Part shown: one piece after another, positions 6,955 through 62,492 of the stretch
Numbering within the stretch: position 1 is the stretch's first letter
Layout: every line of letters starts with the position of its first letter
Source of the DNA: Moniliella sp. 'wahieum'
Taxonomy: Eukaryota
Assembly: GCA_003971905.1 (NCBI GenBank)
Contig: RSEE01000087.1
Coordinates: 186,001-250,000, forward strand
DNA length: 64,000 nucleotides
Reading direction: 5' to 3'
Translations under genes and position numbers: made by a program
Notes under the pieces: generated by a model
Seen by the model: the letters and a program-made list of their open reading frames with translations, nothing else
Told to the model about the DNA's origin: nothing
The model's database searches: none

Positions 6955-7906
6955 ATGAGCATGCTCGCCCGCGTCCTGCCTACCCTGCGTGCCTTTGCCC
7001 TGCCTGGTGCCGTCGGTGTGGTGCGCACCATGGCCACCGCTTCGGCTGCTGATGCGGCCACCTCGCCTGCCCCTCCTCCTTCGCTTCGGCAGCAGAAGCG
7101 CGCGCTGCGCAAGTCCATGGCCCGCACGCTGGATGCCATGACCAAGGAGCAGCTTACTGCCCAGAGCGCCACGGTCGAGCAACTGGTCTTGGCCTCGCCT
7201 CTATGGAAGGCCGCCCACGCGATCAGCATCTACGTCAACATGGACAAGGGCGAAGTGTACACTGACAGTCTGTGCCGCGCGGCGTTGGGGCAAGGTGCGT
7301 ACTCTCCGTCCCCCTAACCCCAGCTTGCCACATACTCCTTGCTACTGGCAACTTGCTACTTGCTGCTGCTTCCGTTTCGGGGGGGCGAGCTGAGCGCTGA
7401 CTGTAGCTGCGACAGGCAAGAGGCTCTATGTGCCGCTGTTTGGATCGGGGGACAAGATGGGGGAAATGAGGATGCTTCACATCCACACTGAGGAGGAATT
7501 TCATGCGCTCCAACCCAACAAGTGGGGGATCCGCGAACCGGGGGAACACTATGCGCCTCATTCCCATCCCACCGTGCACCTTGACGGCCCCAAGCTGGTG
7601 AAGAGGGACGACCCACTGCTTCCCAGCGCACTGGTCAAGGGGTTGGACCTAATCGTCGTGCCAGGCGTGGCATTTGATCACCACGCCGGCCGGTTGGGGC
7701 ATGGCAAAGGGTACTACGATCGGTACCTCACTGCGATGGATGCCTGCCGCCTGGCCCATCACTTGCCCCCGGTCGAGACGTTGGCCTTGGCGTTGGAACC
7801 ACAGCTGCTGCCACCGGGACAGGTGGTACCGCGCGAACCCCATGACCGCCTCCTCAACGCCATTGCTCATCCGGGCGGATGGGTGCTGCCTCCGAGCCAA
7901 TCGTAG
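6955..7906 (+). CDS. FAU1: 5-formyltetrahydrofolate cyclo-ligase (MTHFS); intron 7295-7415
   Basis: KRALRK, YVNMDKGEVYT, spliced QGKRLYVP, NKWGIREP, DLIVVPGVAFD...RLGHGKGYYDRY, HDRLLN. Intron GTGCGT...GCTGAC...CAG. Confidence 0.93.
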
Positions 7907-13457: not shown

Positions 13458-15289
13458 TCAACTGTCTTCGTCGTCCGACTCGTCGGGCTGACGGCGGTAC
13501 TTGGGCCGATGCTTGCGCTGCGGCGAGCTGGCCAGGGCCGAGGCGACGGTGCGTACCAAGGAGCGGTCGACGGTATGAATGTAGTACTTGCCCGACCGTT
13601 CGGCCCAGGAGACGGCGCCACGTGCGTGTTCGCGTTCCTCGACGCGCAAGATGGCCAGCGGGAGGACAAGGTGCGCTCGCACAGTTTAAAGTCATGCGGC
13701 ACAAACGGGCGCAACGAGACAATTTGCGCCCGTCTTTTAAATCGAGAAACTGCAGCGACAAGGTCTCGTTGGTGGCTGGCGTAAACGCATAGTTGTTGAC
13801 CAACACCACGTCTGCCAACGCCAATGCGCGCCGCACGCGGCTGTCGTCGCAAAAGTCTGCGCGCCACGCTTGCATTGGTCCGGCCTCGAGTGCCCACATG
13901 CGGAAACGGGAGCGCGCCTCGGCCAGCTGCGCCTCGGCGCACGCCGCGGGATTCTTCATGATTTCCACCCCGTCGGCCCGCGCGCCCGTTTGGATGGCAG
14001 TTTGGACGAGCAGGTTGCCCACGCCGCTGCCGAGATCGAGAAAGTGTTTGCCCGGACCGAGCTGGGTCAGCTGCGCAATCTCACTCATAAACACGGGCAA
14101 GAGCTCGCCATAGACGTTATCGCTAAACGCTTGGTACTCCGCCAAGCCCTCTACGTGCGGTCCGACCGCGCGCGCGTAGCACTGTGCCTGGATCACCGAC
14201 CACACCACCTCCCACGCCTTCGGTCTCGGTCTGCCGCCGCATCACCTCCAGCACCGAGCCGGACGCCTTGAGTGCGCGCAAGGTGTGGTTGAACCGGTCG
14301 AGAGTGTGGAGGAAGAGGGTGCCGTCGCGCCGGTTGCGCGCCTTGGTGAACGAGCGCAGGATCGGCTCCTCCTGCGGCGGAGAAGAGGAGGAAGGCGGGA
14401 CGTGGTTGGGCGTAGCGGGCGCCGAGGGCGTGTGAATCCGCAACCGAGGCGCCAGCGACGTAGGTCCCGTCTCGAGATCGTCCAGCGACCCAAACCTCTC
14501 GCTCGCCACAGCCGGATCAACGTAGGCTGCCACCATCGCATACACTGCTCGCAGCAGCTCAGCAATCGGGTCGTACTCTTCCTCCGAACGCGGCGAGACG
14601 AGCAGAAACGTTTCCTGCGCATCCATAGCCGGGTACTCGAGCGTGGCCACCGTGTCCGGCGCCAAGTCCTTAAAAAACGGCTGGAACGCCTGCGACCCGT
14701 CTGCCGCACCAGCTGGCGCGAACTCAGCACAGGGTACTTGCTACGCTCATACGCCGCCTCCACCACACACTCACGCGGCACATTGTACTCGGACGCAACC
14801 CCGCTCCGGCCCAGACGCGCCATCCCGCTCGGCACAGGACTCGAGACCGAGGCTGTGTCCCTGCGCCGGCGCGGCTCGACGTTCGACGGCGCGAACGTTG
14901 GCTCCCACTCCTACTCTCGTTGTCATGGTGGCTGCTGTGCTCGTTTCCCGTGTCGGTTTCTTGCTCGCTCTCGCTCGACTGGGAGGGGGTGGAAGGCGGG
15001 GTGGGCGAAGGCTGCTTGCTGCGCTGGGAAGGACGCGGCCGCTTGCGCGGCCGCTCAGAACTGGTATCCGTAGCGGGGGTCGGGGTGCGGGCGGCGCGCT
15101 CCCGTGCGAGGCCGCGCGCACGTCGGCAGAGAGCGCGTTGGTGGTGGCGGGGGCGGAGGGGGCGGGGGCACGCGCGGCAGGCGCCGGAGCAGCACGGCGC
15201 TTGACGGTGGTGGTCTTGACGACTGGCACGCGGGGGTGGGGCTTGCGCGGCTCCTTGCTGCCGCTGGGGGCGCCGAAGAAGTCGAGCAT
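13458..15289 (-). CDS. DOT1: Histone H3K79 methyltransferase
   Basis: LEYP...ETFLL..P...EEYDPIAEL, YQAFSDNVYGEL, FLDLGSGVGN, GVEIM, VVLVNNYAF, FLDLKDG, VSWAERSGKYYIHTVDR. Several frameshifts. Confidence 0.93.
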
Positions 15290-21188: not shown

Positions 21189-22493
21189 TGCCCACAGCGA
21201 CAAGGTCACTGCTGCTGATGCGTGGCTCTTCCCCATTCTGGGCTCGGGCGTGCTGTTCAGCATGTACCTCGCGTTCAAGTACCTGGACCCTGCCGCTCAA
21301 CGCGCTGCTCAGCGCGTACTTTGGCCTGATTGGCAGCGCCGCCGTCTTCCAGGTACGTTGGGCGCCTTTTGTTTTGCGACGCAGAAACCTATGTCCATGT
21401 CTATTCCCTAACCCCTGCTCACTCTGTACCCCCTCCCCTGTGGTTCTCGTACGCAGTGCCTCCGCTCCCTTGCTGCGTTGGTCGTGACGCGTCCGCCGGC
21501 CCGCCAGCACCCAAGCTCCCGTCCAAGAAGAAACCTGCTGCGGAAAACGGTAAGGACAGTGCCGCCGCAAACGGTCCAAAGGATGCGAAAGATGCGAACG
21601 ATGCGAGAAGGACGAGGACGAGGACGATGACGATGAGGAGGAGGAAGCTATCAACCAAAGAGTGGTGCAGCACTGGGTGGCGTGTACGCAGCACTTTGTG
21701 CGCACGCTCACGTTTTTGGACTGGGCGTTCTGCTGCCGCTTTCGGTGGGGGTGGTGAGCACGTACGTGCGCACGCGCCACTGGGCCGCATCCAATGTGAT
21801 TGCCGCGGCGCTTGCGTGGCAGGCCGTCGCGCTCGTCGAGCTGGACCGTTTCGTCACGGGCTCGATCGTGCTGGGCGGGTTGTTCCTGTACGACATTTTC
21901 TGGGTATTTGGCACCAACGTCATGGTCAGCGTTGCGCGCAACTTTGATGCTCCCATCAAGATTACTTGGCCACGCAACCTGCCCCTGATGCTGCATGCGT
22001 ACGTGACGCACCAAGCGTTGCCGGCCAAGTGGGAACTGGCTATGCTCGGCTTGGGCGACATTGTGGTGCCCGGGTGCTTTGTTGCGCTGGCGTTGCGCTT
22101 TGACCAGCACCAAGCGGCGGTACGCGCTGCACCACACACCTCCGTCGCTTCACTGCCCGCACCCGCTTTGCCTCCCCGTACTTCACCGCGACCTTGGTCG
22201 CGTACGTCTTGGCCTCGTGGTCACCATGACCGTCATGACGCTCTTCAAGGCCGCGCAGCCCGCGCTGCTCTACCTCTCCCCGGCGTGTGGGGCGCGTTGG
22301 CGATGACGGCCGCCGTGCGCGGCGAGTGGTCCGCCGTCTGGTCCTGGGCCGACTTGGACCAGGACAAGGAGAAGGAGCAGCAGGAAAAGAAGGACAAGAA
22401 GAAAAGAAGGAAAAGGCCAAGAAGGAAAAGGCCAAGGCTGACAAGGCCAAGACTGACAAGGCCCCCACTCAAGACCCTGTGCCGGCGCAGTAA
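20971..22493 (+). CDS. Signal peptide peptidase (GxGD intramembrane aspartyl protease, Ypf1/HM13-like); intron 21353-21456
   Basis: AWLFPILGSGVLFSMYL, LFLYDIFWVFGT, APIK, MLGLGDIVVPG and QPALLYLSP catalytic motifs. Confidence 0.93.
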
Positions 22494-22975: not shown

Positions 22976-25543
<2,568 letters not shown>

Positions 25544-38621: not shown

Positions 38622-41600
38622 ATGCCCAGCGCCCCGCCGGCCACTGGCCCTGCGCCCCCCGGCCCCGGCCGCGCGCCCACCATCGCCGACTTTGACCTGC
38701 TGCGTGTCCTCGGCAAGGGCTGTGCTGGCAAGGTGCGTGTCTTCTCCCTGCCCTGCGTCTCCTCCTCCTCCTCCTCCTCCTCCTCCTCCTCCGCCTCCTC
38801 CGCCTCCTGCCCCGCCCGGTCTTCTCACACCCCCCCCCCCTCCACAGGTCCTCCTCGTGCGCCAGCGCGCCACCAAGTCCATCTTTGCCCTCAAGACCAT
38901 CCAGAAGCGCCACGTGCTCGCACACCAGGAGCTCCAGCACACCCTCACTGAGCAGGCCGTGCTTGCCCGCACCTCCGCCGCCCACGCCGCCCCCGGCGAG
39001 ACCGGACTGCCCTTCATCGTCAAGCTCTGGTACAGCTTTCACGATGCCACCAACCTGTACCTCGTCATGGACTTCCATCCTGGCGGCGACCTCGCCACCC
39101 AGCTCGCCCGCTGGGGCCGCCTTGGCACCGACCGTGCCCGTTTCTATGCTGCCGAGATCGCAGAGGGTGTCGAGGCGCTCCATGCGGCCGGCATCATTTA
39201 CCGCGACCTGAAGCCAGAGAACGTACTGATCGGACAGGATGGACACATTGTCCTCTCTGACTTTGGCCTCTCCAAAGAGTTCCCGCGCCCCGGGATCGAG
39301 GCGCGCTCCCCCCATTGGCTTCTCCCCTCCGCCTCGAGCAGCAAGAGCCTGGCCGAGGCCGAGAAGCTAGCCAAACTCGCTGGCCAGGACGCCACCACCA
39401 CCTTTTGCGGAACAGCCGAATATCTCTCGCCGAGGTCATCTCGGGCCAGGCGTACAGTTACGAGGTGGACTGGTGGAGCTTTGGTACCATGTTGTACGAG
39501 ATGCTGGCAGGCTACACGCCCTTTGCCGGTGAGAGTCACACGGAGATGTACGTGCGGGTGTTGCGGGAGCCCTTGTCTTTCCCTGATCCCTTGTCGCGCG
39601 GCTACGATGCAACAGCCTGGGACCAGGACACGCGCGGCTTTCTCCGTGGCTTGTTGCAGAAGGACCCAGGCTTGCGGTTGCAGGAGCCCCGGTTAAAGAA
39701 GCACCCTTATTTTGGCATGATTGAGTGGGACCACATCCACTTCCGCCGTTATATCCCTCCCTATGTCCCCCACACTGATCCCCACAACCAAGAGGACACG
39801 CGCAACTTTGATGAAACCTTCCTCGGCTTGCGGCCCAATTTGGAGTTTGACGATGACGAATCAGACGAACCCGAGGGCTCGGACGAAGACGATCCGCAGC
39901 ATGCCCATGAGACGTCCAAGGACCGTGCACGCCGCCGCAGGGAAAAGGACGAACTTGCGGCTGAGGCCGAACGCACCCGCCTCTTGGCCAAGGTCCGGAG
40001 TGTGGCCAAGGCCCAGGGCCAGGATGACGTGCAAAGCCTGTTTGAAGGCTACGACTTTTCCACCTTCTCTTCCGTTGTTCCTGCCGAGGAGGAGGGGGAA
40101 GATGGTCATGGGATGGACGTTGACGCTCCCTCGCCCGAGGAGCACGACACGCATGATGAAGACACTGCGATGCGGGAACGTACGCCCTCTCCTGCACCAG
40201 GCCCGGCGGCGGGTCTGCCGGATACGACGAGTGCGTGGGACACGACGTCTGGCAGTGCCGATGGACTGCCTTCCAGCTCGTCGGGAACAGTCCCACAAGA
40301 GAGCAGGAATGCCCCCGAACTTTCTCCTGTGAACGCCCCCTCGAGCCGGCCTTGGTCCCACCCTCCTCCTCCGAGCTTCCGGACGAGCCGGTGGCGTCAG
40401 CGCCTCTGGCTCCGCCGAGCCCTGTTCAGGAGCTTCCCCCACCGCCCCCACTGTCCCGGCCGTCCCCGCCATCCCCGCCGTCCCCGCCATCCCCGCCGTC
40501 CCCGCCATCCCCGCCGTCCCTACCAGTGTTCCTTCCGGTCTTCCTGCCGCTGCCGCTGCCACTCCCACTGCCGCTGCCACTGCTGCTCCCCACTGCAGCT
40601 GCCTCTGTTGCTCTCTCCGGTAGAGCCACAACCCCCTCCATCCAAGTCCGAGCCCCCCGCACAACGCTATGCACCAGGGAGCGTTAAAGCACGTTTGGCT
40701 GCGTTGGAGGCGGCGCAGAAGAAATCGGCGGCTGCGCCCTTGTTGCCCAACAAGCCGACACGCAAGATTGCTCACACCTACGGTGCGGCCATTGCGGCTA
40801 AACAAGAGCCCAGCGGCCCCAGCACACTCCCCTTACTTCCCGGTCCCCAGCGGCGCGTTCATCCAGCTCATCTACTGCTGATGTATCTGCCCTTCCTTCT
40901 CTTTCACCAGCAGCACCCTCGATCGAGCCCGAAAGTCGACACAACCGTTGTTTCGGACCAACCGGTCGAATCTTCCCCCGTGGTGGAGGCGATGCCAGTA
41001 CAGGAGGCGCCCGTGGACACCGAAGCTATGGAAGTCACTCCCAGCCCATCTCATGTCGCAGAGGAGAACATTTCAACGCCCGCTGGGCCAGAACTGGCCA
41101 TTTCTGTCCCCGCCCCGTCCGCCGAACCGGAATTGACGCCTATGGATGTTGTTCCCGAGCCTCAGCCTAGTCCACCCGCGGTGGAGCAACCGCTGCCCTC
41201 GCCCGTTCAACCTGCGTGGGCTCCTGCGCCCCCTGGCACAACGGTACGGATCATCTCTTCTTCACGGGCGGACCGGACGATGGAACAGTCGTTGTCATCC
41301 CCTTCCACGCCTCGGTACCGTCCACCAAACTTCTTCACTCGGTTCCTAGGGCACGCCCACCTCCCGTCCTTTGTCTGTCCAGTTTTCCAGCGCTCAGGCA
41401 GCCGAGTTTGAAGAGTACGAAGCAGCTGCTTTCTTGGCGAATGCGACGTTGGAAGAACTGGAGCGAGAGGCGAATGAGTCAAGCTTCTCTAACCCCGAAG
41501 TGGTCAGCTTGCCTGACGTGGGTTCTTCCCCACGGAGCCGCCCGAGACAGAGACGGAAACGGAAACGGAGAAGGACGTGGCCGGGCTCACCCTGGAATCA

Positions 41601-52102: not shown

Positions 52103-55100
52103 TTAGCTGCGCTCGATGCGCGCAATCAGTTCGGCCCGCTTGGCCGAATCGGAAAAGAGGGCACGGAGGAGCTGGGTGAGCTCAGCGGGAGCAAAGTCGC
52201 GCAACGCGCCCGCTTCGCCCCAGAGAAAGGCAATGTCGGCCAACGAGCCGGTAAGCACATCGGCCAAGTAGGTCGCCTTGAACCAGGTAGGCACAAACGG
52301 CGCGGCCACCGCCGACGCCCGTTCGTCCGTCACCCCGGCCGCCTCGGCTTGGGCCGCGTCGGCGGCCGCGCCCGCGTCCACGCCCAGCGCCGCCGCGGCC
52401 ACCATGCGCCCCAGCGGGCGACGCAGCTGGGAACACAGCTGCTCCAAGCGCCGGCTCTCGTTGTCCGAGATGTCCTCCAGCGCTTCGATCTGGCCCACAA
52501 CGCTGGCCAGCGCCAGGTTGGCCAGGCGGCCCAGCGCACGCGCCGTCGCGCTCGCCGGCACAACGCCTTGCCATGCACGTGCCAGCGACGCCAGTGTGCC
52601 CACCACCTGCGCCACCGCCTCTCCGCCGCTCCGAACCGATGCACATTCGCCAGCCCCAAAAAGCCCCCGGCCGAGAGCAAGCTGCGGGACACGAGGCCTT
52701 CTTGCACACGCTGTCATTCCATTCGCACAGGGAGCGGAGGTGGTTAGTCAGTCCGCTCAGTCGCAACAAGAAGGACAGGATGAATCGATGAGTGGATGAG
52801 TCGGCGATCGCAACGTACCAATTGATGCTCAAAGCATTCGTGACCCATCATGCCCAGGCGCTCGGCTCGTTCGTGCAGCTCCTCCTGCACCGCCTCGCCC
52901 ATGCGCATCGCAGCCGCTTGCACCCACGCGGCCATCGTCGCACAGTCGTTGCGTACTGCCCGGCCAGCGCAGGCACACTGCTCGCCTCGGCCCCATACGT
53001 GGCGGGCAGCGTGGCAATGTACACGTCCACCGCGTCCACCACGCTGGCTTGCACTAGGGCGGGAAGCGAGCTGCCAGACGGCACGGATTCGTGCGCACCA
53101 GCCAGTTCCATAACCTCCTTCACTTCTTCCAGTCCTGCCAGCTCGGCGAGCTCGGCCAGGTCAAGCCCACCTCCCGCACCACTACCATCCGCCGCGGTAG
53201 CACGTTCGTACAGCGCAACCAGCTCCTCCAGCTGCGCCCGCACCGACTCGGTACGGACCGAGATCTGACACGCCTCTTCCGCCGGCAGCGCGGGTGCGAG
53301 CGGGGGTGGGCTGGGCGAGAGCGCACCTGCGACGATGATGGTATACCCGCCGTTGCCATTGACCCGTCACCCTCTTCGCCCCACCCCCACATATCCTCCT
53401 CTTCCGCGGCGGCGGCGGCAGGCGCGACAGTCAACAACGGCACCCCTCTTTCACGTGCCTCAGTGGCAGCCGCAGAAGGGGCATGTGCTTCCGCCTCGGC
53501 ACCCGCCGTTCGACTCAAGGCCGCATGCGCAAGGTCTGGGGGAGGGTGGGCGGGAGGCGCCACATGCGGTTGGTCCGCTGCGCGGGCGGGGCGAGACCCA
53601 AGGAGCGTGTCCACCTCGCCCTCCTCCTCCTTATCATTCTCGTCGTTGCTGTGCGCCCGCGAGGGAGAAGAGGAAAGGTCCCACGGATCCGAACTGCCTT
53701 CGCCGCTTGGGTACGGCGGCTCGGCCCCAGACCCTACCCCCGGCCCTTCTCCTCCACAACAGCAAGGGGAGCATCTGCCTCGGGCGGCGGCGGGTTGGCA
53801 GCGGGGGACGCGCTTGCATGGCGCACCTCCCGCCCTGACCCCGGCCGTACCGAAGGAGGCGATGCGTGCACAAAGGGGGAGGAATTGCGACTGAGCGCGT
53901 CCCACGAACTGCCAGACGTGCCCTCGCTCCCCTTGGGTGGGGGGGCAACAGCCGTGTGGTTGGCGTAGGAGTCTGAGCGACCCGGTGACTGGACACCCTC
54001 CTCCTGCTCTGCGTCCGGCGGTTGGGGGGCGCGGCAGGACTCGAAGCATCGTCATCCGCATCGAGATCCAGATCCCAGGCGTCTTCTGCCATCGCACTCG
54101 ATTCAGGTCCGGCACGCGGTTCTTCTTCGTGCAACGTAAAGGACGCTTGTTCGGCTTGATCAGGTGCAGGCGCCGTCGGTCCAGGACTTGCCTCGAACCG
54201 CTCGGGTACCACGTCAGCTGCTGCCCCCATCGGGGCAGCATCAACGCTGGGCTCTCTCTCAGCGTGTAGTGGCGGTGAGCGTGTTTGGTTGGGTAGAGGT
54301 GGGTGCTGGAGATGAATAGGCCCAGTTTCAGGAAGCATGCTCGAGGGCGGCGAGGGTGCACCAACGAGCGGGGGGGACAAGTCCCACGCATTCGTGTCCT
54401 GCGGTTGAGGAAGGGGTTGAAGGTCAGGACTCGAACGCAAGTCGAGAGGCTGCCCTTCCTGGGTTCCCGCCAGCGGATCCGTCTCAAAGTCCCACTCGTC
54501 CGCTTGTGCGTCCTCATCCATCAGGGAGCTTTGGGCCGGGTTTGCCACAGCTGAGGGAGAAGAAGCAGGTGCAGGAGCAGGAGGAAGAGCAGAAACGGGG
54601 GCAGGTGCAGGAGCAGGAGCAAGAACAGGGGAGAGATCCCAACCATCCGTGTCGAGCTCAGCATCCGCCTGACTGACGACCGTATCCGAAACGCCGTGAA
54701 GCGGGGGTGTCCTCGTAGATGCTGTCATGTCTGCAAATGACCGCGTTGGCAGATTGGTGTCAAATGTAGAGGCAGGCTCGGCTTCGTTAAGAAGAAGGCC
54801 AGCCTGAGTTTTGCCATCAGATCCTTGTGGAGGTAAGGGGGCCCAATCGTCTTCATGTTCGGTCGTGTTTTCTGAGAGCATTCCACAGTCAGTCTCAAGA
54901 TGCACCACAAGGAAGTCCAAACGCACCCGTCAAGCGAGGTAGATCCACCCCTTCATGACCTGTATGTCCGTGCGGCTCTGTCAAGCCAGCGAAAGAAGGC
55001 TCCTGGTCGGCATGAGCATGAGAGGGAATGGACGCAAGTATTTTGGGTGACAAGTCCCACCTCCTCGCCTGCCGTGTCCAGGGGCTGTCCTTCTTCGGTG

Positions 55101-58100
55101 CCAGCAGCCGGACCAGCCAGATGCTCATCCGTGGCGGTGAAGGAGTGGATCTCGGTCTCGGGCACAAATACGCGGCCATTGTCCAGATCCAATGGCTGGC
55201 CCTCGTCTGTTCCGGCTTGGACATCATCCCGAGGAAGGGCCTCAGGTGGAACGTCTTGAGAAAAGCCCCATCCATCATCACCTCCCACATCGAGGGGCTG
55301 CCCTTCCTCCGTCCCAGCGCCAAGATCAGTAACAAGACCCTCTCCAGCGACAAATGGCCTTGTCTCTGACACACCAGCATGGCCAACGTCCTTGCTGGGC
55401 AGCTGGATCGTCTCCGCTGCTCGACAGGGGTCGGGAGGGAGGGCCACTGGTGCTATCTCCGGCGAGAAGCCCCATCCGTCATCACCAGCCACGTTGGAGA
55501 CGGCCCTTCTTCGGTCGCAACGCCAGACGCGTGCAGCGCCTTGTCGTCGACCATGAAATCGGTTGGCAGAAATGCTTGGTCCATATTCATGTCCCGGAGC
55601 TGTTCCTCCTCTGCTCCTGCGTGCGCTTCGGTGGGGAGCAGGGGCGCGGGTGCCAGCGGCGGGGACAAATCCCACCCATCATCGCTGGCAATGTCGAGCG
55701 CCTTTTCTTCCGCTCCAGTACCAGAGACGGGCAGAGGCGCATCGGCAGAAGGGGGTGAGAGCGGTGCTGTGGCAGGTCCCGCAGGCTCCAACAGCGTCGC
55801 CTCCTTCGTCGCGCCGGCTTCGCTGTGGCTGGGCAGATGCGGGGTAGCGGCCAGCACCGGCGACAAGTCCCACGCATCCTCTGCGTCAGCACCGACTTGC
55901 CGACTCTCTCTCCCTATCGGCACTGGGAACAGCTTCATCAGGCGCCGGGGCGGACGAAGCGCCAGGGGCAAAGGCAAGGCCAACATCCACATCCAGCGGT
56001 TGGCCTTCCTGGGTACCTGCTTGGGTGTCTAGAGCAAGATCCGCGGGGGCCATCTCGGGCGAAAATCCCCATCCATCGTCCTCAGCAGTATCAAGAACAT
56101 GCGCCTGCTCCGTCCCAGCGTCGGGAGCTACCAATGGCACGCTCGCTGCGCCGAAGGACGGCAGATCATGCGGACCAACAGGCACATTCAGCGGTAGCCC
56201 CTCCTGCGTACCTGCCTCAGTGGGTAGAGGAAGAGGCGCAGGCGCCAGCTCGGGCGAGAAGTCCCATGCAGCATCGCCAGGGATGTCCTGAACTTTCTCT
56301 TCTCGGCCTCAACGCCGGAAGAGGCAATGTGCTTGTTCTGGGCCGTCACGAGCTCAGGCTCAGGTGCCTCGGTCGGGTCCGCCTGGCCAACGTTCACGTT
56401 CACGTCCAGTGCTTGCCTCTCCTGCGTACCTGCTTGCGAGGTCAGAGGAAGAGGCGCAGGTTCCAGCTCGGGCGAGAAACCCCATGCATCATCGCCCGTA
56501 TCGTTTAGAGGCTGCTCCTGTTCGGCTGGAGTGCCTACCTGGGCCGCCTCGGTACCCGCGTGAGTGGGGAAAGCCAGGGGCGGAGACGCCGCCTTGGGCG
56601 ACAAGTCCCACGCATCCTCCCCGTCCGTGTCGATATGCGCATCATCCCCCCTATGAGGTGGAGCAGACGACAGAGGCTCATCCTGCATGGCAAGGGTCTC
56701 CGGTTCCCGTTCCAAGACATGGCCTACCTCCCCATTCTCCACATCCTCCACATCCAGCGGCTGGCCTTCCTGCGTACCCGCTCGCGTGTCGAGATCAAGA
56801 GGCGCCGATGCCAGGTCGGGCGACGCCCCCCATGCACCATGCTGATCCACGTTCAGAGGTTGACCTTCCCGGTCCCGGCGCCCGGGGGGAGAAGGAGAAC
56901 GGGGGGGATGCGGTCGGGCCAGGCAAGGAATGCGCCTCATGGGGACCATGCTGATGCAGCGGTTGGCTTCCTCCGTACCTGCTCTGGCGAGAGGAAGAGG
57001 CGCAGGCGCCTCTTGGGGCGAAAAGTCCCATCCGTCGTCCTCGGTGATGTCTAGCGGCTGGCCTTCCTCCGTCCCTGGATGGGGGGGGCGGAAGGGACGT
57101 GCGCCGCCGAGGGTTGGGTCGTCAGAGGCGGCAAGACATGTGCCTCCTCAGCACCCGCGTCCACCACCTGCCCCGCATCCGTATCCACCAGCGTATCTGG
57201 CAATGGCGCCGGCGCCAGCTCAGGCGAAAGGTCCCATCCTTCGTCCTCAACAGGCAGAGACGAAGTGAGCGCCGGCGGCCCTTCGGTCGGCCCTGGCACA
57301 GTATCGCCGTCAGGGGTCTGGTGTGTCGAGAAGTCCCATCTCGTTGGGCCGGCGGGTTCCATCGGTTCGGATGTCCCATGCTCCGGCAGGCTCGCTTCCA
57401 AGGGTGGAGAAAGGGCGTTTTGCGTAGACGCAGGCACTGGCGGGAGAAGCGCACTGGCCAGATCAGGGGCCGGAAGGGGCTCCCCTTGCTCCAGGTTGAG
57501 ACCGGCCGGGTGGGTGGGAGGCAAGGCAGACGGCAGGGGCCCAGCGGCGTCGACGGCGGCTACCCCTCCGTCCGAAACTAACGAGCCCACCTCACCATCC
57601 TTCGCGCTCAGCGGTGCTTCCTCGTCGGGCACGGGCGCAACAGTGTCCGAGCCACGACGGACAGCCGCGTGACTGTCGATATCGACAGGATGGCCCTCCG
57701 CCGTGCCGTCATAGGAATCCAGAGCGTCATCCGACGGAAAGTCCCACCCTTGCGTGCCGTTGTCCCACCCGCCCAGCGCGGGGCCTGCCTGCGTGCCAGT
57801 GTCGTCGTGCCCAGCGGGGAGGGTGAGATGCGCGTTGTGCGCAGCGGCAGACGACCGGGGTGGCTCCGGCATCGCGTTCTCCAAGAACGGTACGAGCGTA
57901 GCTGGCACGACCGAATCGTCCGTCGCAGCAGGGCGCGTAGGGGAAGAGAGGTCCCATCCGCCCGCCTCGCTTCCTTGGTCCGCCAGGGCAGACGGGGCCA
58001 GTGGCGGTGTAGAAAGAGCAGTAGAGGGCTGGACTAGCCCCTCGGGCGGGCGGGGGGTTCGGGCGCCCTCTTGATCGTCCGTGGTCAGAGGGGGGAGAGG

Positions 58101-61100
58101 CCAAGCTAGCTTGGTCAGCCAGCTGCGGGTTCACAACGAGCGTGTTGGCCGCTGTGGTCGGGGGGGAGGCCAGACCCAGACCAGGCCTAGCAGGACTGGG
58201 CGACCCGGCGTGGTCAGGAGATGCCACGGCATCCATGCTGGCGACAGAGCCGGGGCGGGAAGTAGGCAAGGCAGTTTCCGAGGACAACGGCAGGACGGGC
58301 AAGGCTCGGGAAGACGGGGCAGCCGGGATGGAGGGCGGAGGCGAAGAAGCTCGAGGCGCCGACGATGAGGGCAGCTCGAGATCCCATGCGCCATGCTGCA
58401 ACGGCGATGGCGACGGAGGAGCCTCGTGCTTCCACCCACCCTGCTGAGATGGCGACGGCGTGACCAGCTCCAGCTCGTTAGCCGTCCGCGAGAAGCTTTC
58501 GTCAGCAGGAACAGGAGGCGTACGCAGACGCTCGACCGGCTCTGGCGCAAGCACTGCCGCAGATGACTCCCCTGAGACATCCCACTCGTCCGCCGTGGTC
58601 GCAAGAGCGCCCGACGGAGTCGTAGAGGTTGGTACGCCGGCCTTCTCAGTCGCAGGCGGGGCGCGAAACAGCTGGCTCCTTCGGGCGGAACGTGTCGTCG
58701 CCCAAGTCCCAGGCATCCTCGCCAGGCGAACTATGATCAGCAGGCGCTGCAGATGCAGCAGGCGTCGCAGAACCAAGCGCATCCAACTCCTCGGCTCGCT
58801 CGCCTTGCCCAGGGGCTGGGGAAGGGGCGGTAGGCGGAGGCGGGGGCGAGGCAATGGGGGGCAAAGACACGACGCGCGTGGGAGCAGCACTCGCGCTCTC
58901 TGAGGGAACCAACTCTGGAGCCAAGTCCCAAGCGTCCCCTAACCCACGTTCTTCCCGGCGGTACCGACGCTTGTGACGACGTGCGCGACAGACTCGAGGT
59001 GGGCCGCGGGGGAGGGACATGTGGGAGCTCAGCGTCGCACTGGGCCGCCGCGGGGCCGATGAGGGGGATGCGCGGTGCGCTTGCGCGGCAGCGCGAGGCT
59101 AAAGGGGGAATAGGCCGGCGCGGGGACAGGGCGAGCGCAGGTGCCTGCGGCGGGCTGGTGGCGGCCGAAGCGAGTCCTGCCCATGACGAGCCCGCCAGAG
59201 GGCCAGGGAGCGGCGGGGACGCCAAGGAAGGACTGGGCGCCGAGGCCAAGGCAGGGCTGTGCCCCAACGTAGACAGCGTGCTGGGCAACGGAGGAGGACT
59301 GGCCACCACCGGGCGCGGCGACGAGGGCAACGCGCTGGAGCCCAGATCGGACCCCAGCACGGGCACGGGCACCGGGCTGGGCGACGGGCGCAACGGAGGA
59401 CTCCCGCCGCGCTGCCCGCAACGCTGCCCGCGACACTGCCCGACACGCTGCCGGCCATGCTGCCGCCCAAGCTGGTGCCAGCGAGGCCCAGGCCGGACCC
59501 AAGCGCGCGCGCGCCTGTGCCTGCGCCTGCACTCGCGCCGCGCCGAGGAGGAGCGGACTTGGCCCAGCCGCGAGGGCAGGGCGCGGCTGGACAGGGCGCT
59601 GGACGAGCGAACGGACGAGGCTTGGCCGGGACCGGAAGCGGAGGTTCTTCCAGCCCCCACGCATCTTCGTCCGAAGGGAACGGGCCCGAACCCAACTGGG
59701 CCTGCGCTGGGATTCGGCGCGCCGCCAGTTTTTCCGTCCTCCCCGCGCCATCCCCGTTCCGATGGAGTTGGATGGGGCCAGGCTCGCTGCCGGCGTCGGC
59801 GAGGCGCGGGAGACCATGCGTCCGCTACGGGCAATGCCACCTGCTGCCGAAAGGGGCTGGGATCCTCCACGCCCGCAGGGTGGTGGGCTGAGCCAAGGGC
59901 GTTGCAAAATCTTGGTTGCTGCTCGTGTCAAACTCTGAGCCGGGGAGCGCCAGAGGCGGAGCACCGATCGATGCGTACACAGCCGTCGAAGTAGACAGCA
60001 TTGAGGGACTGTCGCCCACCGATCCGGTGGCGCCCCAGGTACCTGGCCACTAGCGGCATCGCGCACACGGGCCACCTGGGCCGCCAGCACGGCTTTGCGC
60101 ATGGCCGTGGGTGTGTCGCGGGCGGCGATAAGGAGGCGTGCAAGCGTCGTGCGTGCCTCGGTCGCTTGCGCTTGGCCCTTGGCCATCAAGGGTTCCGACA
60201 TTGACAAACGCTTCCATGCCTTGAGGAGTTGAAGTGCCTCCTCCCGGGCCACCGACGCTTCCTCGGCCGGGAGCGAGTGCAGGTCGATCGCGGCCAATTG
60301 AGCGCGGTGCCAGGCCAAGAGGACGTCGACAGTGCGCTTGCGCAACAACCGCACCTCCTCATCCTGGGGCGCAGGAAGGTCCTCCTGACTATGAGGTGAG
60401 CTCAGTGTTGCCGTTGCTACGGCCGCGATCAGCTCAGTCACTCGGACCAGGGTTTCGGATGCGGGGCCCGGAGGCCAAGTCAAAGTCACGGCATAGCGAG
60501 ATACGGCTTGGAGGTCCAAGCGAGGGTCCAGTGGGGGAGGCTCTAGGGCAACCCTTGTGGCAGGCGCAACCTGTTCGGCGGCATGCCAAGAGGTGTGAAG
60601 AGAACGTTCTCAAGGGTGGTCAGGAGGGCAGAGAACACAGTAGGGTGAAACGAAAGGAGCAACGGGACCAAGTCGGAGGTTAGATCAAGCGAATGCGCCG
60701 GGCCATCACGCAGAGCGGCAACCGAGATGGACGAAGCCAAGGCCAAATGGACCGTAGTCGGCTTGGCTGGCTCGTTCGGCTCGGTTGACTCGGTGGTCAC
60801 TTGGACCGCGCCATGCCAGGCAGCAAGCGTGAGCGCGCTTGCTTGCTCCATCACCTTGTCGGCGCGGGCGGCGATGGCATGGACAAAGCCAATGCCAGGA
60901 GAAGACAGGGCCCAGGCTTGCGGGCCTTGCGCCAGCTCCTGGACGGCCGCTTGGGCCTTGGGGCCGCTGACGCAGAGGACGTTGGAGAGGTCGCCACTGG
61001 CCCAGGCGAGCTCGGCTTGCTCCACCGCCTGAAGCGGCGCAACCAGCGCTTGACACAGCTCTGTCAGTGCCCGGAGGCGGGTGTGTTGGCCGACCAGACC

Positions 61101-61570
61101 GGTGTGACCGCGGCGGGGACAGAGATGGGCTGTGCAGAGCCAGCAAGTGCCAACACGACCAACCAAACAAACAAACAAACACGAGTCAGTAAGGGAAGGG
61201 CAGGGGCCAGTCTGGCCCGACCTAGACGTACGTCGTGAGCAGCATCGATCGGCGCAAGCGAAGGAGCGGCGCGAAGACGGGCAAGGCGGGCGCGCAGCTC
61301 GTCGACCCGCGCAGGCAGGGAATCGGCGGTTTCAGCATGGTGGGTAAGCTGCTGGGCATGCTGGCGGAGATGGGCAAGGAGGCGGGTCTGGTGGGCATGG
61401 ATCTGCGCATCGAGCAGGGTGGCCTTTGCGCTGGGCGGCAGCACGGGCAGGGCGGCGGCGGAGCCCGGCGTGGCGGAGGAAGCGGGCGCGGGCGGGGCAA
61501 GCGACACGCCGGCGTTGATGGCGACCAGCACCGAGCGGACATCCGTCGGCGGGCCAGCAGGGGCCGACAT
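52103..61570 (-). CDS. DSL1: Dsl1/ZW10 ER retrograde tethering subunit with a hugely expanded acidic Trp-motif lasso; introns 61130-61231 and 52711-52818
   Basis: C-terminus IEALEDISDNESRRL...FVPTWFKATYLADVLTGSLADI.FLW..GAL.DF...EL..LLRALFSDSAKR is a ZW10/Dsl1 C-terminal signature. VPALA..Y.NDC motif present; helical N-terminal region at 61570-60050; continuous coding-like sequence in between. Confidence 0.8.
54600..57260 (-). repeat. Intragenic imperfect tandem repeat of about 200 nt (about 65-70 aa) in DSL1, about 14 units
   Basis: Recurring [DE]D[GA]W[DG][LF]SP.LAPAPL...AGT[QE]EGQPLD peptides; nucleotide similarity visible between 56205-56280, 56422-56497 and 56972-57045. Confidence 0.85.
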
Positions 61571-62070
61571 GGCGTGGGCGGTGCGATGCGATGCGGGCGA
61601 GGGGGCGAGGGGGCGAGGGGGGCGATGGAGATGGTGGGCGCGATGGAGGCGATGATGGGCGCGATGGAGGCGATGGAGGCGATGGAGACGAGGGGGCAGG
61701 CGAGGCAGGTGGCTGCCATGCCACGTCAATATCAATCGCCTTCAAGCTTCAATAGCCCCGCCCTGCCCACCGCCTGTTCCGCCCGCAGCGGAACGGAGTG
61801 GAGTCACCGGCCGCCAGCTGCCTGTCTGCGCCCCCGGGGGCCTACGATGGGCTACGACGTGCTCTGCATGGCCGGCGCCATGGCGGGCATGCAGTCTGCG
61901 GCGGGATGGGATGGGACGAGATGAGATCAACTGGGACGAGGCGCAGCGGGAGCAGAGCAGAGCAGGAGCTATGGCGGCGGCTAGCGCAAATGTGCCCCGG
62001 CCGAGCCGGCCCCGTCGGGCCCAGCACACACACAGCCGCGCGGCGCGTCCATCGCCACGGCGGGCGAGCG

Positions 62071-62492
62071 CTACGAGTCGACGTCGACGCCTCGTTGGCG
62101 GAGGTAGTCCTTGGCCTCTTTGATTTCCTGCACAACGGGGCTGCCCGTGTTAGCCCAGCACCGCACACCGCCAGCACCGCCGCTGCCGCCGCCAACGACG
62201 CGACTGGGGACGGGGGAGGGAGCCAGCGGACAAAGGAGAGCAAGAGCAAGCAACGTACGACCAGCAGTTCTTCGTATGCCTTGGGCGTGTCGTTGAAGTA
62301 GTACAGGCCCTTGCCCAGCTCGTACATCAGGTGGCAGCCCACCGCAATCAGCGCCCACCACGGCAGCGCGGCCAGCACAGCGTCCGCCGTGGCCTGCGGC
62401 ACGAGCGGGACGGGGAGGAGGTGGAGCCAGAAGACGAGGTATGCGCTGGCGACGAGCGCCAGCTTGGTGGCAAAGCGGGTGGCGCGGGTCAT
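62071..62492 (-). CDS. DPM3: Dolichol-phosphate mannosyltransferase subunit 3; intron 62128-62258
   Basis: MTRATRF...LPWWALIAVGCHLMYELGKGLYYFNDTPKAYEELLV|EIKEAKDYLRQRGVDVDS. Intron GTACGT...GCTAAC...CAG. Confidence 0.93.

Follow-up and report, generated by a model that had tools for sequence, protein, structure and literature searches.

A Dsl1/ZW10 gene with a probable giant tryptophan-motif lasso in a draft assembly of Moniliella sp. 'wahieum'

Layout of the locus and family membership

The lasso of Dsl1 is the textbook example of a tether that catches a vesicle by its coat. In Saccharomyces cerevisiae it comprises residues 378-488 of the protein (111 residues), inserted in CATCHR domain C (PMC9915479), and it is described as a disordered loop at the tip of the Dsl1 complex, about 25 nm tall, that binds delta-COP and alpha-COP through tryptophan (Trp) motifs in an acidic context (PMC9915479, PMC4868844, PMC7145657). 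Here we describe a locus of Moniliella sp. 'wahieum' that most likely encodes a member of the same family with a far larger lasso. The window, that is, the whole stretch of DNA analyzed, spans 64,000 nucleotides (nt) of contig RSEE01000087.1 (assembly GCA_003971905.1, positions 186,001 to 250,000 of the forward strand), and all coordinates below refer to it. On its minus strand, positions 61570-52103 most likely form a single Dsl1/ZW10 gene of about 3070 codons, of which about 2200 belong to the lasso (Table 1). The gene is real and extreme, but errors in the assembly are so frequent that its exact sequence cannot be read from it.

Table 1. Features of the Dsl1/ZW10 locus in window coordinates, from the start codon to the stop codon (ORF, open reading frame; iE, independent E-value)
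Feature	Position	Strand	Basis
Exon 1, ATG start at 61570-61568 and family-like N-terminus	61232..61570	-	tblastn and family profile
Profile positions 9-93, N-terminus	61546-61271	-	iE 1.4e-5
Probable 102-nt intron, GTACGT...CTGAC...CAG	61130..61231	-	sequence inspection
Remaining N-terminal half, Ala/Leu-rich, helix-like by eye	60022..61129	-	profile positions 116-213 at 61097-60777 (iE 0.008)
Lasso, about 2200 codons, acidic, Pro/Ala/Ser-rich, with 25 W-[DG]-[FLIV] and one W-G-W	53346..60021	-	
Profile positions 449-533 (family Trp motifs)	59671-53297, seven ORF pieces	-	
Core tandem array with diverged copies of a unit of about 66 codons	54386..57236	-	direct-repeat families D1-D8
Probable 55-nt intron, GTGCGT...CTGAC...CAG	54872..54926	-	splice-signal scan
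Terminal di-Trp motif W-G-W in a Glu run, about 15 codons ahead of the C-terminal domain	53381..53389	-	
C-terminal half with ZW10_C2 at its end; stop codon at 52105-52103	52103..53345	-	Pfam and profile
Profile positions 531-655, C-terminal half (553-604 and 609-655 at 53126-52816)	53288-52816	-	
Frameshift within a conserved family motif, no room for an intron	52950..52962	-	profile and hhalign
Probable 108-nt intron, GTACGT...CTGAC/CTAAC...CAG	52711..52818	-	splice-signal scan
Profile positions 685-838	52621-52106	-	E 7.8e-54
Frameshift revealed by the closest homolog, P0001	52618..52640	-	P0001 alignment

The assignment of the locus to the Dsl1/ZW10 family is secure, and it bears out an original prediction that had been made from the sequence without database searches. 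The last 214 codons (52747-52106) match the Pfam domain ZW10_C2 (PF22766) with an E-value of 1e-21 and a score of 78 bits, against a cut-off of 27. The C-terminal 170 residues also align with human ZW10 (PDB 7QPG chain W, E 3.5e-15), a member of the metazoan class that, together with plant and aquatic-fungal homologs, is given as lacking a lasso in the relevant part of the review PMC4868844. An exhaustive HMMER search with the C-terminal piece returned 420 homologs at E <= 1e-3, the best named of them being Dsl1 C-terminal-domain or ZW10 proteins of Ustilago, Pseudozyma, Moesziomyces, Testicularia, Exobasidium and Malassezia. A word-indexed protein search with the same piece, confined to longer proteins, gave no match, and metagenome contig scans with this piece and with alignment A3 found no relatives. 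The closest homolog, designated P0001, is 57-58% identical. The opposite end of the gene is tied to the family by four further homologs (P0016, P0011, P0013 and P0025), whose N-termini (residues 10-100) match 61567-61301 (tblastn, E 7.5e-6 to 1e-3) and whose C-termini match 52618-52106.

Between these ends, a family profile of 846 positions, built from 93 members of 740-1250 amino acids (aa), was compared with the minus-strand ORF pieces. Judged from these comparisons, the profile maps colinearly along the locus, with its lasso positions falling on the region of Trp motifs. The N-terminal matches are weak but colinear, on the same strand and in the same order as in the family; profile positions 213-449 went undetected, and the unmatched DNA, about 250 codons, is of a fitting length. 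Between profile positions 93 and 116, at the site of the 102-nt intron, there is a surplus of about 105 nt, and the frame downstream of it is ambiguous. At the other end of the gene, similarity to P0001 restarts at 52713, at the edge of the 108-nt intron, and once the frame is corrected, alignments to homologs extend to about 315 residues, spanning two frameshifts and an intron. The acidic Trp region of about 6.7 kb had been proposed to be a lasso roughly 20-fold longer than that of yeast; it does lie at the lasso position of the profile, and its length is about 20 times the 111 residues given for yeast in PMC9915479.

Acidic tryptophan motifs and repeat units of the lasso

The acidic Trp motifs that had been singled out are all present where they had been placed, on the minus strand, between a family-like N-terminus and the ZW10_C2 domain. 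A scan for Trp residues with at least three Asp or Glu within six residues recovered every one of these motifs on the minus strand, from 59659 to 53383, distributed over all three frames. Between 53330 and 60050 the minus strand holds 25 matches to W-[DG]-[FLIV] (59659-53683) and the plus strand none. Counts in the remaining 52 kb of the window are 13 and 11, equivalent to 1.4-1.7 per 6.7 kb, and 200 shuffles gave 2.9 +/- 1.6 with a maximum of 8. This enrichment is far beyond chance. Of the 25 occurrences, the one at 57378 is possibly spurious, for it overlaps another frame at almost the same position; with the terminal W-G-W and a few other acidic Trp sites added, the total comes to about 27-29, in keeping with the 28-30 first counted. 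A further acidic-Trp cluster at 45-52 kb on the minus strand was rejected as Arg/Glu-rich noise from a wrong frame.

Once its frame is corrected, the lasso comprises 2217 codons, with 15% Asp plus Glu, 4.5% Lys plus Arg, 15% Pro, 15% Ala and a net charge of about -233, a composition that suggests a disordered chain. The 25 W-[DG]-[FLIV] motifs carry a hydrophobic residue at position +2 and, in 17 cases, Ser at +3. They had previously been likened to a W-x-x-hydrophobic pattern, with Atg8 as a conceivable partner. The core of the Atg8-interacting motif (LC3-interacting region, LIR) is [WFY]-x-x-[LIV], and none of the 25 motifs has Leu, Ile or Val at +3; the idea of an LIR array was consequently discarded.

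Much of the lasso is built from tandem repeats. At 57236-54386 lies a core array, marked by direct-repeat families D1-D8 that have 5-13 copies of 60-88% identity at spacings of mostly 195-222 nt. The resulting unit of about 66 codons has the consensus [DE][DE][GA]-W-[DG]-[FL]-S-P, and most units also contain a second motif, G-T-[EQ]-E-G-Q-P-L-D. This second motif (family D4) is found at 9 sites between 54442 and 57805 on the minus strand, between or just before Trp motifs; it resembles no element known to us and may bind a partner in its own right. The array of about 200 nt escaped Tandem Repeats Finder because its copies are too diverged. Twelve copies of W-[DG]-[FLIV]-S-P draw on three codons each for Ser and Pro, and on several for Gly, Asp and Leu. 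Since the peptide stays constant despite these synonymous changes, the Trp motif has been maintained at the protein level and is under selection. The same codon variation, together with the identity of only 60-88%, means that the copies are old rather than the product of an assembly duplication.

The GC content in this part of the window is 0.60-0.73. Inside the lasso, at 54000-55500, it dips to 0.59-0.60, compared with 0.64-0.73 around it, and the probable 55-nt intron lies in this dip. Since a GC-rich window yields long ORFs in all six frames, ORF length alone means little here. A periodicity of GC content at third codon positions (GC3), with repeated phase jumps, is clear at 54000-57500 and weaker at 57500-59600; its clear part, like the confinement of the Trp motifs to one strand, speaks for a coding region.

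Lasso length across the family

To place the locus among its relatives, we aligned to the profile 128 homologs of at least 600 aa, comprising 123 representatives drawn from the best 150 of the 420 matches and 5 added cluster members, and defined lasso length by the stretch from profile position 430 to 535. Its median is 111 aa, the length given for the yeast lasso (PMC9915479), with quartiles of 98 and 185. Ninety-nine homologs have lassos below 200 aa and 15 have lassos of 200-499 aa, but the uniqueness implied when the Moniliella lasso was first noticed did not hold, as in seven homologs the lasso, at the same position, reaches 1743-2097 aa and in seven more 505-938 aa. With about 2200 codons and about 27 motifs, the window lasso would be the longest among those surveyed, by only about 5%. 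Lasso length correlates with Trp count (Spearman 0.63). Some lassos of intermediate length are denser, one of 938 aa holding 48 acidic Trp motifs and another of 927 aa holding 40. A W-x-W motif is present in the lasso of 106 of the 128 homologs, and in 98 it falls within the last 120 lasso residues.

The seven giants are six cluster representatives and one added member. Six of them are named Sporidiobolales: Rhodotorula toruloides (2868 and 2889 aa; GEM07258.1 and BGP24613.1), Sporobolomyces phaffii (2993 aa), S. pararoseus (2950 aa), Rhodosporidiobolus poonsookiae (2987 aa) and R. microsporus (3116 aa), with GAA6016544.1, GAA5969776.1, GAA6011922.1 and GAA5897511.1 as the further accessions from this order. 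The remaining giant, P0105 (2914 aa), clusters with these in the tree. The Sporidiobolales giants are annotated as single proteins, with N- and C-terminal halves flanking the insert as in the window. The giants contain 13-18 acidic Trp motifs, in most cases W-G-F or W-D-L, as well as two W-x-W motifs located 44-185 residues from the C-terminal anchor. The Moniliella gene resembles the Sporidiobolales giants in total length, in the profile position of the lasso, and in having a di-Trp motif near the C-terminal anchor with single-Trp motifs upstream. It differs in motif density, about one per 105 residues in the giants against one per 66-82 in the window lasso, and its lasso has no detectable sequence similarity to theirs. 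In a tree of C-terminal domains the window sequence and P0001 fall in an unresolved polytomy, outside the well-supported clades of Sporidiobolales, Malassezia-related fungi and Ustilaginomycetes/Exobasidium. With no shared lasso sequence and a position outside the Sporidiobolales clade, the expansion is either independent or diverged beyond recognition. Equally long lassos in all close relatives had been named as what would make the Moniliella lasso unremarkable; the Sporidiobolales giants come near to this, although they may not be close kin of the window organism. A CDC48 comparison confined to unusually long proteins gave a best identity of 90%, to Agaricomycetes, which places the organism no more narrowly than among the basidiomycetes.

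Shorter lassos of the same general type occur in the Ustilaginomycotina orthologs, which include Ustilago maydis UMAG_05371 (1166 aa), Pseudozyma flocculosa PFL1_05344 (1631 aa) and proteins of Moesziomyces, Testicularia, Exobasidium and Malassezia. These share with the window gene a C-terminal domain of 43-47% identity (E 1e-19 to 1e-18), matching N-termini and acidic Trp lassos; unlike the window lasso, however, theirs are 100-480 aa long with 4-8 acidic Trp motifs, and the window gene lies outside their clades. With S. cerevisiae Dsl1 the likeness is one of architecture, namely a CATCHR tether subunit with an acidic Trp-bearing loop between its N- and C-terminal halves and a di-Trp motif near the C-terminal side of that loop. 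The differences from the yeast protein as described in the literature are a loop of about 2200 codons rather than 111 residues, about 27 Trp motifs rather than a few, and a construction from tandem units, each about 66 codons long, that bear an extended Trp motif and a second conserved motif.

Two groups of database records deserve separate mention. In the C-terminal-domain tree, three ENA/Logan records (P0104, P0306 and P0080; 1462-1844 aa) fall with Malassezia; their lassos of 626-938 aa contain 32-48 acidic Trp motifs, in P0104 with a repeat about 25 residues long, and represent another, denser mode of lasso expansion. P0004 (MCO5588317.1, labeled Adiantum nelumboides) and P0308 (KAI3479655.1, labeled Cichorium endivia) are fungal-type Dsl1 proteins under plant names, and probably derive from fungal contigs within plant assemblies; P0308 shares a 90%-identity cluster with Moesziomyces proteins.

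Broken reading frames, alternative gene models and possible function

A size of about 3000 aa was originally attributed to the protein, and the gene is put here at approximately 3070 codons, but these codons do not form one ORF, and several observations weigh against reading the locus as a single giant protein. No continuous ORF exists: even the cheapest stop-free path has to change frame at least 14 times over the gene, including 10 changes within the lasso. The density of frame breaks, about 1.5 per kb, exceeds the 0.3-0.4 per kb of the CDC48 and kinase genes elsewhere in the window. The GC3 signal is weak in 57500-59600, and in 59600-58950 the frame is ambiguous. The stretch 60585-60022 shows no family similarity (hhalign against the family alignment, probability 0.1). 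Finally, the window lasso has no detectable sequence similarity to other long-lasso homologs, and a word-indexed database search with a 319-aa lasso ORF matched no protein of 175-559 aa.

The nature of the breaks can be examined within the gene itself. Three of the frame switches are probable introns with canonical signals (Table 1), and the remaining ones leave no room for an intron. Nine of the 23 intervals between consecutive Trp codons (leaving out 57378) are not multiples of three, and one of these is restored by removing the probable 55-nt intron, which shortens 55059-54641 from 418 to 363 nt, or 3 x 121; the translation of this intron is hydrophobic, unlike the remainder of the lasso. 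A scan of the lasso for splice signals gave two extra intron-like signals, one of them credible. A 77-nt candidate at 55374-55298 was rejected for its poor 5' site and the lack of any frame change there. Repeat units that shift the frame measure 199, 200 and 206 nt, only 1-2 nt apart from in-frame units of 195, 198 and 204 nt. In the C-terminal half, profile position 604 ends at 52962 and position 609 begins in another frame at 52950; hhalign assigns the upstream piece to profile columns 616-659 (E 0.0027), and a nearly invariant Cys-containing motif (alignment A1) continues in the other frame past the break. Residues 15-46 of P0001 match 52713-52618 in frame -2 (66% identity, E 1e-8) and the next residues match frame -1 as far as 52106, so that P0001 is contiguous at about 52625, where the window sequence changes frame. 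No premature stop is forced when the frames are followed. By comparison, the plus strand of the lasso region needs 22 frame switches on its cheapest stop-free path, and a codon-scored path through the gene takes 21 switches over 3144 codons.

Breaks of the same kind are found in other conserved genes of the window. The protein kinase has a one-base deletion inside its A-P-E motif near 39430 (39400-39470, plus strand); CDC48, a gene 90% identical to its homologs, has a frame jump inside the second AAA (D2) domain near 23745 (23740-23760, minus strand); the DOT1 domain is interrupted near 13690 (13658-13696, minus strand); and the signal peptide peptidase has a probable frame jump at 22122-22208 on the plus strand. 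There is one break per 2.4 kb in CDC48, one per 3.1 kb in the kinase ORFs, and none in the 1.6 kb of PRPP synthetase, the sole intact ORF among those checked. GC3 phase jumps are likewise frequent across the whole window. Homopolymer runs of at least four bases number 15.1 per kb in the lasso, 4.1 in CDC48 and 16.6 in the kinase region; as the lasso is no denser than the kinase region, such runs do not explain its higher break density. Because the same type of break lies inside conserved domains of four other genes, the frame switches that are not introns look like assembly indels, and the broken frame is probably, for the most part, an artefact of an indel-rich draft assembly, compounded by three short introns. 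The polishing of the assembly that had been called for is thus justified by breaks in this gene and in four others, and any ORF-based reading of the window needs frame correction, given the frequency of small indel errors. If the draft-quality sequence is corrected in this way, it is probable that the locus encodes one giant protein, and we infer one uninterrupted polypeptide across it.

Two alternatives would deny such a polypeptide. If the frameshifts were real, the locus could be a decaying pseudogene copy of Dsl1/ZW10, or a gene whose lasso alone is decaying, with a functional copy elsewhere. The excess of breaks over CDC48 and the kinase speaks for decay, as does their reach into the conserved C-terminal domain; yet one-base breaks of the same type occur in CDC48, which is essential in yeast, as well as in an invariant kinase motif, DOT1 and the signal peptide peptidase, phase jumps pervade the window, the Trp-motif peptide has stayed constant over synonymous codon changes and no stop interrupts the followed frames, all of which make decay improbable. 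We regard as equally improbable that the locus holds several transcription units, or a largely intronic middle, so that an ordinary-sized Dsl1 would flank a separate acidic protein or non-coding repeats. The unmatched stretch 60585-60022, the ambiguous frame in 59600-58950 and the likelihood of at least three short introns would fit such a split, but the profile is colinear and its lasso positions fall on the repeat region, and the region of the first Trp motif (59782-59612) resembles the lasso motifs of four homologs. Moreover, only one of the two extra intron-like signals in the lasso is credible, the periodicity of the repeat units leaves no space for introns of 50 nt or more, and Sporidiobolales gene models describe one protein with an insert of the same size.

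A third alternative accepts one giant protein but assigns its single-Trp motifs to a partner other than COPI, such as another coat, an adaptor, Atg8 or a lineage-specific factor, perhaps with a contribution from the second motif. Its appeal is that neither W-[DG]-[FL]-S-P-E-L nor the second motif (9 copies) was seen in the other lineages, and that S-P could be a phosphorylation site. Against this, the motifs occupy the position of the COPI-binding lasso of the family, their acidic context and Trp with an aromatic residue or Leu at +2 are common to lassos of other lineages, and the ancestral di-Trp motif has been retained; for Atg8 in particular, the absence of W-x-x-[LIV] from all 25 motifs is a further objection. 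We consider a non-COPI partner unlikely, if somewhat less so than the two preceding alternatives.

The best explanation, to which we assign a probability of about 0.6, is an ER-tether Dsl1/ZW10 protein whose COPI-catching lasso was enlarged by tandem duplication, with frame breaks that are mostly assembly artefacts. The product would be the Dsl1/ZW10 subunit of the endoplasmic reticulum (ER) tethering complex for COPI vesicles travelling from Golgi to ER. Its lasso would have grown by tandem duplication of the unit of about 66 codons, adding about 26 single-Trp motifs and keeping one ancestral di-Trp motif beside the C-terminal domain. The model is the yeast lasso, which sits atop a tower and catches the COPI coat by its Trp motifs. 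The alpha-COP C-terminal domain has a site for single-Trp motifs, and this site is important both in coat oligomerisation and in tethering to the ER (PMC10866661, citing Travis et al. 2019). By analogy with yeast, the single-Trp motifs may engage the alpha-COP C-terminal domain and the di-Trp motif the mu-homology domain of delta-COP; COPI binding by the lasso is a reasonable inference. A strongly acidic Pro/Ala/Ser-rich chain of this kind would offer more hooks, higher valency and a longer reach for COPI capture, possibly in competition with the coat's own single-Trp contacts.

A bolder scenario, which we put forward as speculation and consider unlikely, is that lasso hyper-expansion had more than one origin in basidiomycete yeasts, here by duplication of the 66-codon unit and separately in the Sporidiobolales. 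It would have yielded a multivalent net or condensate scaffold of about 2000 residues that gathers, and perhaps uncoats, COPI vesicles at ER arrival sites by out-competing single-Trp coat contacts, with the second motif recruiting an additional factor. If this were true, Dsl1 would shift from a short-range hook to a vesicle-gathering scaffold. The giant lasso is an extreme variant of a known device, and its precedents in public databases are apparently undescribed, as our literature searches found no description of a long basidiomycete lasso. Natural lassos of about 100 to about 2200 residues, with 4 to about 50 Trp motifs, constitute a ready-made series for studies of capture range, avidity and uncoating, and a giant version is carried by the genetically tractable yeast Rhodotorula toruloides.

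The surroundings of the gene are unexceptional. A tandem repeat of a 9-nt unit (about 12 copies, 74% matches) at 61588-61697, just upstream of the start codon at 61570, likely lies in the 5' untranslated region or promoter, and a separate DPM3 gene is located farther upstream, at about 62492-62262. Pfam matches in positions 1-32000 and 62262-62492 of the window identify SDE2, a zf-C2HC5 protein, an SH3 protein, 5-formyltetrahydrofolate cyclo-ligase and DOT1, together with dynactin p62, signal peptide peptidase, CDC48, PRPP synthetase, two KH-domain pieces, a protein kinase and DPM3, which is an ordinary fungal housekeeping context. The 5-formyltetrahydrofolate cyclo-ligase gene has a probable intron at about 7296-7403.

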